Source of the DNA: Candidatus Latescibacterota bacterium
GTDB lineage: Bacteria; Latescibacterota; UBA2968; GCA-2709665
DNA length: 64,000 bases
Assembly (NCBI GenBank): GCA_965237675.1
Contig: OZ250150.1
Coordinates: 32,001 to 96,000 of the forward strand
Direction of reading: 5' to 3'
In this document: positions 20,363 to 64,000 of the stretch, one piece after another
Position numbering within the stretch: the stretch's first letter is position 1
How the letters are laid out: each line of letters opens with the position of its first letter
Translations under genes and position numbers: made by a program
Notes under the pieces: generated by a model
Seen by the model: the letters and a program-made list of their open reading frames with translations, nothing else
Told to the model about the DNA's origin: nothing
Database searches by the model: none

Positions 20363-21280
20363 TCACACCGGAAAGCGCTCGCAGCCCAGCGCTTGCGCCA
20401 TTGCCCGGATGTGCGACGGGCCCGCGCCGCAGCAGGCGCCGATGAAGTTGATTCCCTCCGCCTTCGCCTTCAGGGCATATCCCGCCATCTCGCTGCCCGA
20501 CACGATCATTGACTCACGGATCACCGAATTGTTGGGGCCGGCATTGCGATAACCCTGTGGCTGATACGCGATGGGGATATCCACGGCCTGCCGCATCGCC
20601 AGAACGCCCGGCCACAGGGTCATTGAATCGCCAGCGCAAACCAGGCCGACGATATCCGCGCCCTCGTCCGCCAGGACCTTCGCGCACTCGGCTGGCGTGG
20701 CGCCGTCCTGCGTGCGGCTGCTCGAACCCATCAGCACCATCGCGGGAACGTGTGTTTTCTTACATCGCGACAGGCACAGCCGGGCTTCGTCCAGCCGCGC
20801 AAACGTTTCCGGCACCAGAAGCCCGGCGCCCGCGTCCACCATCCAGGAAATGTGCTCGTCCCACTCCGCGCATGCCCGCTCGCGCGCCCGTGCATTGTCG
20901 GGCCTGAAAATGTACGGCCCCGTCCACGAGCCCGCAGCCGTCTGGTTCAGGCACCCGGCGACCAGGGCTTCGCCGCCGGAAGCCTCCAGGGCCAGCCGGA
21001 TTGCCGTGCGGGAAATCTCCTCCAATCGGGCCGCCTGCCCGCTGGGCCCGTCGCCCGGTTTATAACGGCGTTCGAGTTGCGACCGGCTGGTCCACCAGGT
21101 CTGCGCCTGAAGTACATGGGATCCGGCCCTGAAGAAATCCTGGTGGATCTGACGCAGCGCATCCGGATCTTCCAGAATCATAGCGGGTGTATCGTACCCC
21201 CGCCACCTCGCCTCGATAATCATCCCCCCGTCGCTGAGAACAACGCCCTCCTGCAGCATCTTCAATATGTCCCTGCCCAT
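20363..21280 (-). CDS. Homocysteine S-methyltransferase family (BHMT-like), HMT-1
   Basis: VLSDGG, HQDFFRAGS, PETF, ADIVGLVC, FIGACCG; AGGAGG RBS. Confidence 0.88.
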   Translation of the reverse strand: MGRDILKMLQEGVVLSDGGMIIEARWRGYDTPAMILEDPDALRQIHQDFFRAGSHVLQAQTWWTSRSQLERRYKPGDGPSGQAARLEEISRTAIRLALEASGGEALVAGCLNQTAAGSWTGPYIFRPDNARARERACAEWDEHISWMVDAGAGLLVPETFARLDEARLCLSRCKKTHVPAMVLMGSSSRTQDGATPAECAKVLADEGADIVGLVCAGDSMTLWPGVLAMRQAVDIPIAYQPQGYRNAGPNNSVIRESMIVSGSEMAGYALKAKAEGINFIGACCGAGPSHIRAMAQALGCERFPV

Positions 21281-23311: not shown

Positions 23312-24247
23312 TTATCTCGGCCGGAGTTCGATGTGTTTCCGTTCGCAGTCCAGCGCCTGGGCCATCGAGCGAAGGAGTCGTACCACAACCCCGTCCGACC
23401 CGCCCAGAAAGCGAATATCGTGCGCAATCGCCTTCAACGCGTACTGTCCCAGTTCCATCCCGTAGACGTGCATGGCCTCCCGCATCCCCTTCCAGTGTGG
23501 CCGGCATGTCCGATACCCATTCGGCAGAAAGGCGATCGGCGTGTCCACCGCGTTTCGCATTTCCAGCACAACCGGCCACAGGTCTTCCGGCTCCCGCATG
23601 CCGCCCCCGCCCACGACGTCTGCGCCGTCGCCGGCCAGGACACGTGCGCACTCGGCCGGCGCGACACCATCGGCGGTGACGTCATCCTCTTGAAGCAGGG
23701 GATTGTTCAACCGCCCCTCCGGCAATGCGATGTCCACCGAAACCACCACCGGCAGCACGCTCCTCTTGCTGCACGCCAGCGCCAGGCGTGCCTCGTCTAG
23801 CCGCCCGAACGACTCACAGACAAGCAGGTCCACACCCGCGTCGGCCAATATCTCGACCTGTTCCTCCCACTCCGCCCGGGCGCGGTCCGCAGATCCCGCG
23901 TCATCGCCCTGAAAGGCCCCCGTGGAGGACAGTGTCCCCGCCACCAGCGCCTCCCCGCGCGCCGCGCCCTTCGCCAGCGCCACGGCTCTCCGGTTCAACG
24001 CGTCGACATGGTCGACCCCACCCGCTTTCCCCCGCTCGCCAAGCCCGGTTCGGGTACACTGACCCGCCAGGGCTCTGATCACGCCGGCGCCTGCCCGGAA
24101 AAAATCCTGGTGGACCAGCCGCACCGCGTCTGGGAAGTCCTCCAGCACCCAGGGCGCTGAATATCCCCGCAGCCTCAGTTCCTCCGCGTTTCCACCGTCT
24201 CCCAGTACGAACCCATCTTCAAGGGATTTCAAAACGGACTCAGGCAT
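23312..24247 (-). CDS. Homocysteine S-methyltransferase-like protein lacking Zn-binding cysteines, HMT-2
   Basis: VLGDGG, HQDFFRAGA and CESF are retained; ADVVGGGGM and FLGGSDG replace G-x-x-C and G-x-CC. Confidence 0.8.
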   Translation of the reverse strand: MPESVLKSLEDGFVLGDGGNAEELRLRGYSAPWVLEDFPDAVRLVHQDFFRAGAGVIRALAGQCTRTGLGERGKAGGVDHVDALNRRAVALAKGAARGEALVAGTLSSTGAFQGDDAGSADRARAEWEEQVEILADAGVDLLVCESFGRLDEARLALACSKRSVLPVVVSVDIALPEGRLNNPLLQEDDVTADGVAPAECARVLAGDGADVVGGGGMREPEDLWPVVLEMRNAVDTPIAFLPNGYRTCRPHWKGMREAMHVYGMELGQYALKAIAHDIRFLGGSDGVVVRLLRSMAQALDCERKHIELRPR

Positions 24248-28852: not shown

Positions 28853-29728
28853 TCAGACCGCGTCGGGCGCGCGTCCCAATGCCCGCGCCATCGCCCTGAT
28901 GGTGTTCGGCCCCGCCCCGCAGCAGGCGCCGATGAGATTGATCCCTTCGGCCTTCGCCTTTACCGCACTATCGGCCATCACGTCCAGCGGAACGCGTGTA
29001 TCCTTTCCGCCAGATCCAAAACCATTGGGCTGCCAGCCAACGGGCACGTCCACGGCCTCACGCATCTCCACTGCGAGATTCAACATCCCTTCGGGCGTTC
29101 CGTTGCATACCAGACCCACAACGTCGGCCCCCTCCCCGGCCAGAACGCGAGCGCACTCCGCCGCCGTGGCGCCGTCCTGCGTCGCGCGGCCCATGCCCAT
29201 GAATACCATAGTCGGAACACTCGTCTTCTTGCAACACTCCAGGCACACCAGCACCTCGTCAAGACGGTGAAAGGTCTCCGGAATCAGGAAATCCGCACCC
29301 GCCTCCACAAGAATGGCGATCTGTTCGTCCCACTCCGCCTTTGCCCTGTCCCTCGAGGACGGGTCTTCCGGATCGAAAATCGGATCGCCCTCCCATGACC
29401 CGGTCCTGGTGGATACCAGGCATCCCCCCACAGGCGCCTCGCCGTTGGATGCCTCCTTTGCCAGTTGCACACCCACCCGGTTCACTTCGTCCAGCTTCTG
29501 GCTCCAACCAAAACTCCGATCCAACTGGGACCGGGAGGTAAACCACGTCACTGCTTCGAGCACCTGCGATCCGGCATTGAAGAAATCTCTGTGGATCTGC
29601 CGGATGGCGTCCGGATCCTCCACAATCGCCCTGGGGGTGTCGTACCCACGCCACCGTGCTTCCAGGATCATGCCGCCGTCGCTCAAAACAACGCCATCGT
29701 TCAGCATCTTCATTACATCATTCGGCAT
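28853..29728 (-). CDS. Homocysteine S-methyltransferase family, HMT-3
   Basis: VLSDGG, PETF, ADVVGLVC, LIGACCG. Confidence 0.88.
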   Translation of the reverse strand: MPNDVMKMLNDGVVLSDGGMILEARWRGYDTPRAIVEDPDAIRQIHRDFFNAGSQVLEAVTWFTSRSQLDRSFGWSQKLDEVNRVGVQLAKEASNGEAPVGGCLVSTRTGSWEGDPIFDPEDPSSRDRAKAEWDEQIAILVEAGADFLIPETFHRLDEVLVCLECCKKTSVPTMVFMGMGRATQDGATAAECARVLAGEGADVVGLVCNGTPEGMLNLAVEMREAVDVPVGWQPNGFGSGGKDTRVPLDVMADSAVKAKAEGINLIGACCGAGPNTIRAMARALGRAPDAV

Positions 29729-58999: not shown

Positions 59000-60130
59000 T
59001 CATTGATAGTAACCGGTCCCCAATGGCGGCCGGGCGTACGCCACCTCGATCCGACAGGGTACCCCCGTACGGCTCATCGAATTCACGCCCCGGCAGGCCA
59101 GCGACTGAACCCCCTCCCGCATCGGCCAGTCGAAATGCGCCTCACACCGATGCCAAACCCCATCATCGATGCGAATTTCATAGTGGTCGAAAAACGGCAT
59201 ACAGTGTGACAGCGTTACCGCCAGCCTGGGCACGCCTGTGTTCCACACCGGCTGCGTGGACACGCGTACCAGATTCACGGTCCAGTACACGTCCGACAGG
59301 TTGGAGGTCCACTGAACACGGCCAACGGGTCTGAAATTACTCACGAATGTCGGCAGGCACCTGCGGTCCACCCATTCCCAGGTCAGGCGATCCGTCAATA
59401 CCCGGATCCGGGCATAATAGTCCATCACCCTGTTTCGCATGAACCTAGCGAACAACTGGCGGTTGACCTCCTCGTCATAATCTCTCCGGCAGGTGGGATC
59501 GCGGAGTGCGAGCCGGACATGCCTGGCGTCCGGAACGAGGAATTCCGGCTGATCCTGCACCATTTCAACCGCATCTGCGGCGCCGCTCAGCCACGCCTCC
59601 CGGATTTCCAGCGCGTTCAGCGGCGTACCTTCTCGTTCGTAGTGGACGTTGACGTCCGGATCCATCATCACCCACTTCCGGTGTTCATTGGACCAGACCT
59701 CGGCAACCGCGTGTCCCACGTTCCACATAGCGTAGTCCCGGGGCGCCTCGCAATCTTCGACACCAATTCCTACCCGCCGCGCAGGCCAGCCCAGCGCGGT
59801 TGCCGAATCCACAAAGACCCGGGCGTAGGAACCGCAGAAGAATCGTTCCCCCCTGCGCACGGCCTCCAGAATGCCCAGGCCGTCGTCGACTTCCGGGCGG
59901 TTGTACCAGAGCCCGTGGTCCCACTGTTCGCGGACCCATCGTTTCAGGGCCAGAAACCCCTCGAATTCCGTTTCGCAGCCCGAGACGACGCCTTCCAGCC
60001 CGTACTTCTCCCTGAGGCGCGCGATTCTCGGCGCATGCGGGTCCCCGTACTCGTGGCAGGTATGATCCCCGGTGAAGTCCGGGACGTCAAAAGAGACGAC
60101 ACGGAACTCACCAGGACATCTCTGGCTCAT
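59000..60130 (-). CDS. Transglutaminase-like domain protein
   Basis: Cys-His-Asp triad: FFCGSYA, GHAVAEVW, WVMMDP. Confidence 0.8.
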   Translation of the reverse strand: MSQRCPGEFRVVSFDVPDFTGDHTCHEYGDPHAPRIARLREKYGLEGVVSGCETEFEGFLALKRWVREQWDHGLWYNRPEVDDGLGILEAVRRGERFFCGSYARVFVDSATALGWPARRVGIGVEDCEAPRDYAMWNVGHAVAEVWSNEHRKWVMMDPDVNVHYEREGTPLNALEIREAWLSGAADAVEMVQDQPEFLVPDARHVRLALRDPTCRRDYDEEVNRQLFARFMRNRVMDYYARIRVLTDRLTWEWVDRRCLPTFVSNFRPVGRVQWTSNLSDVYWTVNLVRVSTQPVWNTGVPRLAVTLSHCMPFFDHYEIRIDDGVWHRCEAHFDWPMREGVQSLACRGVNSMSRTGVPCRIEVAYARPPLGTGYYQ

Positions 60131-60146
60131 GAGATCCTCCCGCGAG

Positions 60147-61061
60147 TCACCCGGTTCGCACCGGCTTCCCCAGCGCCTCCGCCATCGCGCGGATGTGGGA
60201 CGGCCCGGCGCCGCAGCAGCACCCCACGAAGTTGATCCCTTCCGCCCTCGCCTTCAGCGCGAACGCCGCCATATCGTCGGGCGTGACGCCATTGCGATGC
60301 CGGCGGACGGCATAGCCGCCGTTTTCGGTATCCTCCATCTGCCTGAATCCCTTCGGCTGGCAGGCGATCGGTACATCCACCGCTTCCCGCATCTCGAGCG
60401 CCGTCGGCAGCATCTGTTCCGGGTCCCCGATACAGACGGTCCCCACGATGTCCGCGCCGTCGTCCACGAGGGCGCGGGCGCACTCCGCCGCGGTGGCGCC
60501 GTCCCGTGTCGCCTTATTGCTGCCGATGCCCACGAGCGCCATCGTCGGCAGGCCGGTTTTCTTACAGCTTTCCACGCACAGCCGCATCTCGTCCAGACGG
60601 GAGAACGTCTCCGGGATCAGGAAGTCGGCGCCGGCGTCGACGAGAATTGCGATCTGTTCTTCCCATTCGGCCTGCGCGCGTGCGCCCGACGAAGGATCCT
60701 CCGGATTGTAAACCTGGTCTCCCAGACGGGAACCGGTCATCGTGGATACGAGACAGCCGCCTACCGGCGTCTCCCAGTCCGATCCCTCCTTGGCCGCCCG
60801 AATCCCGGTCCTGTTGATTTCGTCCACGCGGCCTCCCCATCCGTATTTCTCCTCCAGCTGAGCGCCCGAGGTAAACCACGTCAGCGCCTGGAGCACCTCG
60901 GCACCCGAATTGTAGAAGTCCCGGTGGATCTGCTGAAGCACATCCGGGTGGGAGCCGATGATGCCGGGCACATCGTAACCTCTCCAGTTCGCCTCCAGGT
61001 ACATCCCACCGTCACCGAGGACGATTCCCTCTTTGAGCATTTCCATTAGATTCCCGGCCAT
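60147..61061 (-). CDS. Homocysteine S-methyltransferase family, HMT-4
   Basis: VLGDGG, PETF, ADIVGTVC, FVGCCCG. Confidence 0.88.
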   Translation of the reverse strand: MAGNLMEMLKEGIVLGDGGMYLEANWRGYDVPGIIGSHPDVLQQIHRDFYNSGAEVLQALTWFTSGAQLEEKYGWGGRVDEINRTGIRAAKEGSDWETPVGGCLVSTMTGSRLGDQVYNPEDPSSGARAQAEWEEQIAILVDAGADFLIPETFSRLDEMRLCVESCKKTGLPTMALVGIGSNKATRDGATAAECARALVDDGADIVGTVCIGDPEQMLPTALEMREAVDVPIACQPKGFRQMEDTENGGYAVRRHRNGVTPDDMAAFALKARAEGINFVGCCCGAGPSHIRAMAEALGKPVRTG

Positions 61062-61123
61062 ATCTCAATTCTCCTCTCTACAGTAGTTGAATTGCCCCAC
61101 CCTCAAACGACCCCTATTCCCTT

Positions 61124-61923
61124 GATGTAGGGAGAGGTGAGACGGTAGACGGTAGAAGAAATCCTTGCCTGGTATGTTATTCCTCCTTGCCTCCGGCACG
61201 AGAAGAAACCTCACAGGGCAGGCAATCTCTCCCGGCTTACGTCTTCCTGCCTTTACAGAAGTTGATACGGCCCGGGCTTATCCGGCATTGCCGTCGGTTT
61301 TCCGATCGCCTCGGCCATCGCGATGTGGGGAGAGGTGAGACGGTAGACGGTAGAAGAAATCCTTGCCTGGTATGTTATTCCTCCTTGCCTCCGGCACGAG
61401 AAGAAACCTCACAGGGCAGGCAATCTCTCCCGGCTTACGTCTTCCTGCCTTTACAGAAGTTGATACGGCCCGGGCTTATCCGGCATTGCCGTCGGTTTTC
61501 CGATCGCCTCGGCCATCGCGATGTGGGGAGAGGTGAGACGGTAGACGGTAGAAGAAATCCTTGCCTGGTATGTTATTCCTCCTTGCCTCCGGCACGAGAA
61601 GAAACCTCACAGGGCAGGCAATCTCTCCCGGCTCCCGGCTTACGTCCCGCCGTTAGAGAAGTTGAAACGGACCCGGCTGATCAGGCATTGCCGTCGGTTT
61701 TCCGATCGCCTCGGCCATCGCGATGTGGGGAGAGGTGAGACGGTAGACGGTAGAAGAAATCCTTGCCTGGTATGTTATTCCTCCTTGCCTCCGGCACGAG
61801 AAGAAACCTCACAGGGCAGGCAATCTCTCCCGTCTCCCGGCTTACGTCCCGCCTTTACAGAAGTTGATACGGACCCGGCTGATCCGGCATCGCCGTCGGT
61901 TTCCCGATCGCCTCGGCCATCGC
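61124..61923. repeat. Tandem array of four 198-202-bp units, each ending in a copy of the HMT-5 3' end
   Basis: Units start at 61124, 61322, 61520 and 61722; 69-bp gene-end segments at 61253-61321, 61451-61519, 61653-61721 and 61855-61923 (the real gene end). Confidence 0.95.
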
Positions 61924-62790
61924 CCGGATGTGGTACGGCAGGGCCCCGCAGCAGGCCCCGATGAAATCGACGCCCATGTCCCATGCATCCCTCGCGTAGT
62001 CGGCCATCTCACGCCGGGGCTGGTGCCGGAGTTCGAAGTGGACGCTTGAGCCCGAGGCGATCTCCCGCGTATACTCCGCGCCGTTTTCCAGCACGTACGC
62101 CAGGGGTTGCGCGCAGATCGGGACTGAAACGGCGCGCATCATCTTTTGGACGATATCCCGGTACATGTACCAGGGACGACCACAATTCACGCCCACCACG
62201 TCGGCGCCATGATCCACGAGCCGTTTCGCGGCCTCGTCCGGCAGATACCGGTCGGCGGTATACTCTCCCGATTTGTACTCAAGCGTCACCACGGCGGGCA
62301 CACCGGCGCTCTTTATGTAGGGCAACCCCAGCGAAGCCTCCTCGACGGAATAAAACGTCTCTACGATGAACAGGTCCACCCCCGCCGCGATCTGCTGTCC
62401 CACCCGCCGCTCGAAAAACGCCTGCGCCTCGCGCCTTTCCTTAACGGTAATTGGCGATCGCCTCTGGTACTTTCCGATACCGACGGGGCTGAGCGTACCC
62501 GCCACAAACCGGTCCGGGCCGGCAGCCTGCCTCGCAAGCTCGACGGCCGTACGGTGGAGTTCCTCATCCCGATCCATCTTGCCCACGCCCCAGGCCATGG
62601 CCTGCAGCACTTCGGCACCGGCAAGCGCGAACTCCCGGTGCAATTCGAGCAGACCCTCAGGGTGATCCAGTACGGCCCAGGGGACGCCTTTTGCGAAACT
62701 GCCCAGACATCGCCGCTCAAGCTCCAGGTAGTACCCACCGTCGCCAAGCACCGGCCCGTCCTTCAGGCGATCCAGAAAACCCGATGTCAT
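61855..62790 (-). CDS. Betaine-homocysteine methyltransferase-like protein, HMT-5
   Basis: GFLDRLKDGPVLGDGG...LHREFALAGAEVLQA, VETF, VGVNC, FIGACCG; AGGAGG RBS. Confidence 0.88.
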   Translation of the reverse strand: MTSGFLDRLKDGPVLGDGGYYLELERRCLGSFAKGVPWAVLDHPEGLLELHREFALAGAEVLQAMAWGVGKMDRDEELHRTAVELARQAAGPDRFVAGTLSPVGIGKYQRRSPITVKERREAQAFFERRVGQQIAAGVDLFIVETFYSVEEASLGLPYIKSAGVPAVVTLEYKSGEYTADRYLPDEAAKRLVDHGADVVGVNCGRPWYMYRDIVQKMMRAVSVPICAQPLAYVLENGAEYTREIASGSSVHFELRHQPRREMADYARDAWDMGVDFIGACCGALPYHIRAMAEAIGKPTAMPDQPGPYQLL

Positions 62791-62850
62791 TGCAATACCT
62801 CCTGTTGGGATTGTCAGACGCTGTCGACAGCCTCCATCAGAAAACGGTTA

Positions 62851-63218
62851 GCCTCAATTCGAAAAAAGATAACTGTTAAATTGGCCACAAAAAGCACAAA
62901 AGGCACAGAACGTATCGGTGCGAAACGGCGTGTGTCGTAACGTCGTGATCCTGCAGTTATTTCGTTGTCTCTCGGCCATACGCCCTGTAACAGATTAGCT
63001 GTTTTTGTGCCTTTTGTGGCAATTTGCCTTAATTCAAAAGATACAGCAAGGCGACACTGCGGAAAAAACTTCAGAATCGGGGCGTTGAGGTCGTCCAAAT
63101 GGACGTTTTCTCAGTTCACGTCCAGTGACCTTAAACATCTTGGAACGCCGACGTCAAATCGCCTTTGTTCTTCTGTGTAAATTCGATTTAAGGTCCCCAA
63201 AAAACGACGAATCAAGGT
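62851..63218. mobile_element. MITE copy B (longer form)
   Basis: TA-gcctcaattcg ... cgaatcaaggt-CA ends; internal inverted repeat ~62878-62903/63002-63025; homologous to 6980-7194. Confidence 0.7.
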
Positions 63219-63344
63219 CAGACGTGGAACGGAACGAAAAAACAGAGCGCCAAAAACATCCGGGTTCGGGTGGGGTCCTCTACCGTCTTACGTCTACCGT
63301 GTCACCGACTTCGTTCAACGTGTCGATTTTCATAACTTACAGTG

Positions 63345-64000
63345 TCAAGGGCGAACTGACTGAATTGGGAAATCGCCAGCTTTTCTCTTCTCGGAGGGCC
63401 GGAAATCCGGAACATCCAGACACGCGCTTCCCTGCTCCACAGACTGAACGGCCACAATGGCCGGCGCCGTCAGTTCCGCCGACCTGTATACGTTCAAGGG
63501 TGGATCCGAATCATTCAGGATCGCGTCCAGAAAAGACGAAAGCGCGAAATAGTCCATATTTCCATGCCCGCTTCCCCGGGCTTCCTCGGGAAGCTCGTCC
63601 GGAGAATAGGTCCATTCCATCGCCCGCATACCCTCTTCTCCGGAACTCTCCAGCCACATCTTCGGCGTATCCACGCCCCGAGATCCGCCGTAGATCTCCG
63701 CGGATCGGGCGGTCTCCACCTTCCCTGTGGTCCCCTCCAGGTGCCACCAGTGGTGATCGCGGGGTGTCGTTGCGTACGTAAAACCGGCTGCCATCCGGAC
63801 AATCGTGTCCTTTTCCGTGTGCATCAACGCCACCTGGATATCCGACGCGGGAATCCCCTCGTAATAGTAGCTTTTGGGCCGCGTCCCCATGCATGTCACC
63901 CGCGTCACCCGGTCCTCCAGAACCGACAGGATGGGACCCAGGTCGGTTGCCATGTAGAGAATCGGGTGGGGATACCAGTTCCACATTCTGCTCTTTACGG
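63345..64000 (-). CDS. Gfo/Idh/MocA oxidoreductase (GH109-like paralogue), 5'-truncated by window edge
   Basis: DIQVALMHTEKDT, DHHWW, GSGHGNMD and VPDFRP shared with 18974.. and 26812..; frame is open to the window end. Confidence 0.85.
   Translation of the reverse strand, partial: VKSRMWNWYPHPILYMATDLGPILSVLEDRVTRVTCMGTRPKSYYYEGIPASDIQVALMHTEKDTIVRMAAGFTYATTPRDHHWWHLEGTTGKVETARSAEIYGGSRGVDTPKMWLESSGEEGMRAMEWTYSPDELPEEARGSGHGNMDYFALSSFLDAILNDSDPPLNVYRSAELTAPAIVAVQSVEQGSACLDVPDFRPSEKRKAGDFPIQSVRP

Follow-up and report, generated by a model that had tools for sequence, protein, structure and literature searches.

Copies of a methyltransferase gene end in a tandem array of small palindromic elements in a Latescibacterota genome

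In Pseudomonas fluorescens SBW25, REPINs form ordered tandem clusters of up to four elements, the largest extending over 700 bp (Bertels and Rainey 2011, PMC3116915). By analogy, such clusters are the closest known structures to the array analyzed here, which consists of four units over 800 bp and follows a homocysteine S-methyltransferase-family gene (hereafter HMT-5) in a 64,000-nucleotide stretch of the genome of a Candidatus Latescibacterota bacterium (G000, contig C1, positions 32001-96000, hereafter the window; the genome has 5.6 Mb in three contigs, with 58% G+C). As far as the description in that report extends, the two structures share a dispersed and extragenic location, many copies, the capacity to form hairpins (predicted, in our case) and an arrangement in ordered tandem clusters that include flanking sequence. 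Unlike the REPIN clusters so described, the included flank is here 69 nt of coding sequence with a stop codon, the arms are heptamer runs instead of a 16-25-nt REP word, the host belongs to the phylum Latescibacterota, and no RAYT flanked by elements was found in the genome, none of the three Y1-transposase (PF01797) homologues having a heptamer cluster within 3 kb. On the whole, the array looks like ordinary repeat amplification with an unusual by-product and not like a special store of gene ends.

Two further systems resemble parts of the array. The intergenic heptamer repeats of Xanthomonas and Nostoc are G-rich runs of 7-nt units that occur preferentially between co-directional genes and in the 50 bp next to stop codons, and vary in the number of units (Rehm et al. 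2015, PMC4692102). The runs in the array are likewise 7-nt repeats between co-directional genes near a stop codon but, compared with that description, they form two inverted arms of an element of ~135 bp with a conserved core, and the unit is of the GAGACGG type. Intervening sequences of 23S rRNA can contain an S23p (PF05635) ORF, a small four-helix-bundle gene within inverted repeats that is regarded as selfish (Warrier et al. 2016, PMC4990558). In the genome under study, the PF05635 gene is likewise enclosed by inverted heptamer arms, which are of the type found in the array element; in contrast to the situation described for 23S rRNA, it is located between protein-coding genes, the array element has no gene, and gene and element do not co-vary cleanly. 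A limited search of the literature on REP, REPIN and S23p, which does not amount to a claim of absence, found no description of tandem element arrays that hold copies of gene 3' ends.

The array is located between HMT-5 and a same-strand S-methyltransferase paralogue (Table 1) and was delineated by Tandem Repeats Finder at 61124-61923 (period 198, 4.0 copies, 96% matches). On the minus strand, the units u1, u2, u3 and u4 (units 4, 3, 2 and 1 of an earlier note on this DNA) start at 61923, 61721, 61519 and 61321 and measure 202, 202, 198 and 198 nt, respectively; each consists, head to tail, of a 69-nt gene tail, a variable stretch and an identical block of ~105 bp. Each tail is equal or nearly equal to the 22 terminal codons of HMT-5 plus TAA, and that of u1 is the real gene end, the final 69 nt of HMT-5 (61855-61923). 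Both the repeat finder and the alignment thus reproduce the four ~200-bp units of block, linker and gene-tail copy that the earlier note had described, and the translations it gave for the tails are correct: DQPGPYQLL-stop in the gene (u1), DQPGPFQLL-stop in u2 and DKPGPYQLL-stop in u3 and u4. The word GATGT(G/A)G, as also noted there, opens every unit on the plus strand (61124, 61322, 61520 and 61722) and recurs at 61927-61933, 3 nt beyond the copied part. The HMT-5 protein matches PF02574 with 124.6 bits over residues 15-295 and reaches the cut-off of no NCBIfam equivalog.

That the array was produced by the assembler, by stringing together strain variants of a single unit, is very improbable. 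The genome is metagenome-assembled, judging by its relatives, and the variable part of u2 (61576-61758) has no covering contig in four runs, so that u2 comes from the assembly alone; however, the contig sets used for this check are public sets built with k=31, which break at repeats and show presence but not absence. A tail-to-block joint is impossible with a single unit, and therefore contigs that bridge such joints count against an artefact. One contig of 153 bp in X1 spans 61403-61555 and crosses the u3/u2 joint, one of 163 bp in X2 spans 61205-61367 and crosses the u4/u3 joint, and one of 228 bp in X3, which comes from a different host organism and a different study, matches 61259-61486 without a mismatch; the assembly may derive from the sample of X1 or X2, which in that case would not be independent of it. 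In X2, the word depth is 210-212 in the block unitigs, 121 in the u3/u4-type part and 52 in both flanks, that is, ~4 and ~2.3 times the flanks, in agreement with four units, although contig depth is not copy number. Moreover, the contig bearing the array is 5.6 Mb long. The copy number of four is that of the assembly itself, the evidence coming from short contigs and not from long reads. The sole RNA contig that could be placed (X18) covers 60600-60998 and is uninformative on transcription of the array.

The block and the linker of the earlier note together make up one imperfect palindrome of ~135 bp that belongs to a dispersed family. The element consists of a left arm of heptamers (consensus about GGCGGGAAGACGTAAGCCGGGAGACGGGAGAG), which is the former linker, a core conserved in sequence, and a right arm of complementary heptamers; in the array, it starts within the TAA stop codon of HMT-5 (TAAAGGCGGG). 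The inverted heptamer runs that had been reported to bound the block are real: with up to 3 mismatches, the pattern has 11 matches in the window against 0.21 expected. Compared with fuller copies such as that in L029, the left arm is shortened by AAG in the u1/u2 pair and by one heptamer in the u3/u4 pair; with different losses in the two pairs, neither arm type derives from the other, and both go back to a shared fuller form. In a search of the own genome with a profile built from the four copies, six other full copies were detected, along with many arm fragments, so that the block does occur elsewhere, as the earlier note had proposed to check; judging from the ORF listing, none of these full copies adjoins a methyltransferase gene. 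Searches with the unit sequence covered 41 genomes, the own genome included, and gave matches in 20 of them; these comprise all 14 that were searched from the genus, where a single genome yielded up to about 200 first-look candidates. The orthologous element is clearly diverged between species, and hence strong constraint does not account for the identity of the block within the array. With ~135 bp, the element is too small and cannot be autonomous. One heptamer run of the arm type (CTACCGTCTTACGTCTACCGTGTCACC) stands alone between two genes at 63270-63302 of the window, on the opposite strand.

We consider it fairly probable that the array was founded by a duplication between two CCACATC words and expanded by unequal crossover, the tails being untranslated relics and the array a by-product of repeat instability. 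The three head-to-tail joints are identical (...CCCCACATC joined to GCGATGG), and the gene reads ...TACCACATC-CGG-GCGATGG, that is, CCACATC-CGG-GCGATGG. The two CCACATC words are 205 nt apart, one within HMT-5, 72 nt before the stop codon, and the other closing the element; a 7-mer would match by chance within 5 nt on either side of the breakpoint with a probability of about 7e-4, and the copy in the gene is the likely founding microhomology. The starting state would have been a single ~135-bp element directly behind the HMT-5 stop codon, as in several related species. Palindromes promote slippage between flanking direct repeats, and slipped or template-switched replication between the CCACATC words may have duplicated the intervening segment, with the loss of 3 nt (CGG) at the joint, whereupon unequal crossover among the ~200-bp repeats would have raised the number of copies to four. 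An exchange inside the first 20 nt, which are identical among the tails, would transfer the live tail of the time into the array, and repeated rounds of allelic import and unequal exchange could give the observed order of tails. The live gene, in the meantime, would keep changing under purifying selection, probably via allelic recombination, and the relics would take a few random hits; it is on account of this selection on the gene that most differences between the relics and the live tail would be silent. The identity of the core and right arm in all units would reflect recent amplification, conversion between neighbours, or both. The earlier note argued that simple slippage plus drift predicts the opposite pattern; the combined action of ordinary duplication and unequal crossover with allelic recombination and gene conversion would explain the one observed. 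In Escherichia coli, one of the microhomology junctions of amplifications carries a 3-bp deletion (Slack et al. 2006, PMC1428787). The amplification described there resembles our case in the short direct repeat at the novel joint, the later homologous exchange between units and the 3-bp deletion joint, but those amplicons measure kilobases and were selected in the laboratory, whereas the array consists of a natural 200-bp unit centred on a hairpin.

The site was compared with 14 orthologous loci (87-97% amino acid identity to HMT-5). None of these contains a 69-bp tail copy in the spacer; the second match to the tail anchor in each locus is located ~950 nt or more downstream, at the C-terminus of the next paralogue. 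The spacer is ~15-31 nt long in L008, L010, L014 and L018, where the stop codon is directly followed by the ribosome-binding site; it contains one or two elements of the array's family in L007, L013, L016 and L019 and a different palindromic element in L009, L015, L017 and L020; L011 and L012 are rearranged after the orthologous gene. Filled sites have at their borders a 12-nt direct repeat, TCAACTNCTGTA, corresponding to the last four codons of the gene, and empty sites have this word once; by these comparisons, the site behind HMT-5 is a hot spot at which elements appear to have landed or been remodelled in most relatives. The right end of the element, ...CTCACCTCT(A/C)CCCACATCA(A/G)GGG, is common to L007, L013, L016, L019 and the window, and therefore CACATC is an old part of the sub-family end that was not created by the array. 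L016 and L019 each have two tandem elements, with 12 nt of the gene end copied between them (...CCCACATCAGGGGAAT followed by TCAACTACTGTAAA...); this is a second duplication, with different borders, and a shorter counterpart of the 69-nt arrangement in the window. The neighbouring elements of L016 are identical over a core and right arm of ~139 nt, from GGGAGAGATT onwards, and differ in their left arms by substitutions and a 52-nt insert, with the same left limit of identity as in the window array; the cores of the orthologous pair in L019 differ, so that homogenisation restricted to the core and right arm does occur in this family.

The different palindromic element (GGGCGCCCACAAGGGACGTCCCTACA ... 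TGTAGGGGCGTCCCTTGTGGGCGCCC) is present in the spacers of L009, L015, L017, L020 and L038, in some of these loci with heptamer arms of the CAGC type. In L011 and L012, the position of the paralogous methyltransferase gene is taken by one homologous to the transglutaminase-like gene of the window, with an intact start in L011 and as remnants in L012.

The tails vary at eight coding positions (21, 33, 39, 43, 48, 51, 56 and 66), six of which are synonymous third positions, in keeping with the earlier count; among random single-base changes in the tail, the silent share is 0.24-0.26, which puts six silent changes out of eight at p about 0.004-0.005. The variation is confined to one part of the unit, with 18 of the 19 variable alignment columns in the first 97 of 202 (binomial p 2e-5); the final 105 columns differ only at 61129, again as noted earlier for the block (about one base). 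The variant states at five of the eight positions are present in orthologue tails (p 0.003; p 0.07 when conditioned on third positions) and those at four in L007, L008 or L009 (p 7e-4). Within the own genome, the 69-nt tails match the array only, and no paralogous donor of the variants was found there, the sole matches outside the array being chance words of 14-18 nt. Thus, by their sequences, the tail copies look like states of the live gene, allele-like, and not like drifted junk.

Common states and arm type group the units as ((u1,u2),(u3,u4)). When L007 and L008 serve as outgroups, the changes at 33 and 48 (and, by the unit tree, at 21) are placed on the lineage of the live gene, all of them silent, and the changes private to the relics are at 39, 56 and 66 in u2 and at 43 in u3/u4, in codon positions 3, 2, 3 and 1; such a pattern of silent changes in the live lineage and scattered ones in the relics is how relics next to a gene under selection are expected to look. 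An in-situ clock model for the tails was considered and disfavoured, the changes on the live lineage exceeding the neutral expectation (p about 0.02-0.09 in a rough hand calculation). The live tail is nearest to that of L009 (2 differences), and the whole gene is nearest to L007 (94.1% of nucleotides). HMT-5 is a mosaic that is closest to L007 and L008 along most of its length, is the same as L009 at all listed variable sites in positions ~470-610, and is unlike every compared relative in positions ~612-700; allelic recombination is therefore a plausible source of the changes in the live tail. Because the donors carry other spacers, the imported tracts would have to end near the stop codon or the left arm.

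Variant copies of a 3' end directly downstream of a gene are also what would be seen in a silent cassette store that acts in the manner of pilS or vls, by gene conversion of the C-terminus, or in the target of a diversity-generating retroelement. A homologue of the four-helix-bundle family, which is akin to the accessory protein of diversity-generating retroelements, is encoded in the genome. Both versions nevertheless appear extremely improbable: six of the eight differences are silent, the two residue changes are conservative and affect the tail of a cytoplasmic enzyme beyond the Pfam domain, and the substitutions (G/A, G/A, G/T, C/A, G/C, T/G, A/T and G/C) are of many types and not adenine-specific.

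Several observations weigh against the origin by duplication and crossover that we favour. The novel joint and the CCACATC microhomology are offset by 3 nt, so that a second event or an imprecise switch is needed, and the sharp boundary between the variable and invariant parts is explained only post hoc; the array may be young, with allelic imports, or older, with conversion of the block. The changes on the live lineage exceed the neutral expectation, the exact p depending, within the range given above, on the polarisation of positions 21 and 51, and all five private changes of u2 are in the tail and linker, with none in the block. Among 34 family copies, no covariation was found in support of the hairpin (term -0.13, with 1 of 17 predicted pairs compensatory), in part because the heptamer arms fall out of register in the alignment. 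Furthermore, the 228-bp contig of X3 is of the u3 type and has a length of 198 + 30 (period plus k-1) with identical terminal 30 nt, that is, it is a closed cycle in the k=31 graph, and no other X3 contig is at least 99% like the window flanks. The relative that dominates X3 belongs to the L009 type and differs at 42 positions over 554 nt of flank (about 92% identical). The u3-type cycle contains 0.335 of the sampled words, and the shares in runs X3-X6 are 0.33-0.38; those in runs X7-X17 are 0.24-0.27, from which no conclusion is drawn. The cycle would be explained by a low-abundance strain with an expanded array, if the contig builder dropped weak links to the flanks, or by a free or mobile unit.

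The latter possibility corresponds to a scenario, in essence the reading of the earlier note, in which the 198-202-bp module of tail and element is a mobile non-autonomous unit, in the form of a circle or single strand, that re-inserted 3' of CACATC, each insertion adding the tail of another allele, possibly with the help of a protein encoded elsewhere, such as the four-helix-bundle gene. Every unit ends with CACATC, so that insertion would recreate its own target; the tail variants are allele-like; the site is a hot spot in multiple species, bounded by the 12-nt gene-end repeat; and the closed 198-bp cycle in X3 is identical to u3 although the flanks of the dominant relative are only ~92% identical, the shares in X3-X6 being equal to that of the cycle. 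We still regard this scenario as unlikely. There is no second unit-bearing site in the genome and no unit in any of the 14 orthologous loci, and none of these 14 orthologues ends in the exact K or F tail. The junction word has five matches in species-representative genomes, all in unrelated Streptomyces, Acidocella or Steroidobacteraceae and taken as chance, and none in the JGI metagenome contigs, where a degenerate tail pattern retrieved one contig, of the L009 type and without an array. The gene-proximal copy has the CGG that the distal copies lack, whereas insertion at the CACATC of the gene predicts the reverse, and the three Y1-transposase homologues are not near heptamer clusters.

As to a helper protein, the single PF05635 (23S_rRNA_IVP) match in the genome (C1:1368011-1368325, 123.5 bits; 1994..2353 of L006) is the four-helix-bundle gene with the same type of heptamers that the earlier note had suggested looking for. 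It stands between two unrelated ORFs, flanked to the left by GGTAAGAGGTGAGAAGGAAGACGTAAGAGG and to the right by CCTCTCCCGTCTAACGTCTTCCGTCTAAC; by eye, its left arm has the word GGAAGACGTAAG in common with the consensus of the element family. In all five PF05635 loci of relatives that were viewed, also by eye, runs of ~7-nt repeats with other unit sequences occur on both sides. PF05635 matches occur in 26 of 41 genomes; within the genus, the elements are present in all 14 genomes and the gene in 12, these being related and thus non-independent genomes; however, G005 and G012 have elements and no PF05635 match, and G020 has 14 PF05635 matches and no element match. The association between the gene and the elements is, accordingly to these counts, suggestive but not clean, which weakens the case for a mobile module served by this protein. 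Slightly less likely still is the broader conjecture of an active mobile class of heptamer-armed foldback elements, with PF05635 proteins as possible helpers, in which the 198-bp module would cycle freely, as a circle or rolling tandem, and re-enter behind CACATC.

At C1:1368011-1369130 (1900-3130 of L006), the PF05635 gene is followed by two internally deleted tandem copies, which retain the start region and the last codons, and then by a right-arm repeat of 49 bp x 3.4.

These results divide the proposal of the earlier note, namely, that a small non-autonomous element repeatedly integrates at this gene end and leaves a record of displaced ends. The small, dispersed, non-autonomous element at a hot spot stands; for its repeated integration with replacement ends no evidence was found, the unit being in none of the 14 loci and the junction word in no related genome or metagenome contig, and delivery of new 3' ends by the element is unsupported, with GATGTGG 3 nt out of register and tandem arrays without a gene piece common in the genome. 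Similarly, the copies do seem to be allele-like relics (six of eight differences silent, five of eight states present in orthologues), and the search of related genomes for the tail variants yielded these states but no orthologue with the exact K or F terminus. Integrative elements that target the 3' ends of tRNA and tmRNA genes carry a replacement end; they span kilobases, with an integrase gene of their own and the same core sequence at the two junctions. The array is similar in that displaced 3' end copies lie downstream of the gene, as tandem insertions give several; it differs in the 200-bp unit without coding capacity and in the core word that is out of register at the gene. By the features compared, the array is not a site-specific integrative element that restores the 3' end: the unit of 198-202 bp has no plausible gene, no helper was identified, and none of the 14 loci has the unit. 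GATGTGG, which would be the core of such an element, is present at all joints, with an offset of 3 nt in the gene.

It is also conceivable, although distinctly improbable, that the array is kept for a role of four stacked hairpins in the transcript between the two co-directional genes, such as protection of the 3' end or uncoupling of the downstream gene, with the tails as passengers. The element starts inside the stop codon and is predicted to form a single long hairpin (-52.7 kcal/mol as RNA), the two genes are ~15-31 bp apart in four of the 14 relatives, which suggests former coupling, and the downstream gene retains its own ribosome-binding site (61069-61078). REP-type elements behind stop codons affect the fate of mRNA. 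On the other hand, a promoter and terminator scan found nothing in the array, with no intrinsic-terminator-like site, and there was no Rfam match over 60000-64000 at E up to 1. The fold lacks covariation and its z-scores are modest (-1.85 for RNA and -1.26 for DNA), and relatives live with none, one, two or unrelated elements.

Amplification of small palindromic elements is a common phenomenon in this genome, where tandem arrays of such elements without a gene piece are frequent. An array of the same family (142 bp x 2.1) has 100% identity and no gene piece, and arrays of other families include 187 x 2.2, 71 x 5, 102 x 5.8, 229 x 2.7 and 187 x 2.5; in the array at C1:1569979 (187-bp unit), the differences are confined to one hairpin, with the remaining unit identical. 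Ordered tandem clusters with flanking sequence are the array under study and C1:5531461-5531759. The array behind HMT-5 is thus one of many, and its peculiarity is that one border is inside a gene.

Further high-identity intergenic arrays of hairpin-bearing units, with periods of 71-229 bp, are found at C1:1569979-1571128, 1582219-1582924, 1488383-1488991, 1859633-1860167 and 586808-587211. Upstream of HMT-5, at 62883-63026 of the window, there is an A+T-rich inverted repeat (GGCCACAAAAAGCACAAAAGGCACAGAAC ... CTGTTTTTGTGCCTTTTGTGGCAAT), and the same words build a 187-bp x 2.5 tandem array at C1:3051748-3052214, which points to a second family of small palindromic repeats. The genome has 12 PF02574 matches, five of them inside the window (20387-21235, 23354-24205, 28877-29683, 60171-60971 and 61906-62748); one match outside it, at C1:841564-842397, contains one in-frame TGA.

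Table 1. Features of the array behind HMT-5 and full copies of the element elsewhere in the genome (window coordinates unless preceded by C1).
Feature	Position	Strand	Basis
Live homocysteine S-methyltransferase-family gene (HMT-5)	61855..62790	minus	ORF, 311 aa
u1, element copy 1: heptamer arms to the left and right of the core, the right arm ending CCCCACATC	61722..61854	minus	alignment; nhmmer E 5.9e-41
u2: dead tail 61653-61721 (Y to F, two silent changes), element 61520-61652	61520..61721	minus	alignment
u3: dead tail 61451-61519 (Q to K, silent changes), element 61322-61450 with left arm shorter by one heptamer	61322..61519	minus	alignment
u4: dead tail 61253-61321, element 61124-61252; differs from u3 only at base 61129	61124..61321	minus	alignment
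CCACATC inside HMT-5 (codons Y-H-I)	61927..61933	minus	7-nt direct repeat of the word closing every element copy
Old right flank of the original insertion (ACATC followed by AAGGGAATAGGGG...GGGGCAAT), common to L007, L013, L016, L019	61091..61123	minus	comparison with relatives
12-nt direct repeat TCAACTACTGTA, copy of the four terminal codons of HMT-5, bounding the whole insert	61079..61090	minus	comparison with relatives
Downstream paralogous S-methyltransferase gene	ORF 60147..61061; with ribosome-binding site 60147..61078	minus	ORF and PF02574
Other full element copies	C1:2681782-2681919; C1:2334736-2334873; C1:964583-964720; C1:2596916-2597044		profile match
Two tandem full element copies	C1:5531453-5531720		profile match

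The locus behind HMT-5 appears to be a case in which amplification of repeats around a hairpin element engulfs part of a gene and freezes older versions of its end beside the live copy, so that the array may serve as an internal time series, if a small one, of recombination and conversion events in an uncultured bacterium associated with sponges. With this locus, the Latescibacterota join the lineages with heptamer-armed palindromic elements, and the likeness between the arms of these elements and those of the PF05635 gene in the same genome offers a lead on an unexplained class of repeats. If the closed 198-bp cycle in X3 proved to be a true free or mobile unit, the interest of the locus would rise sharply; and, should heptamer-armed elements indeed be a mobile class, the array would be a dated stack of former gene ends, that is, a record of allelic turnover in a sponge symbiont.

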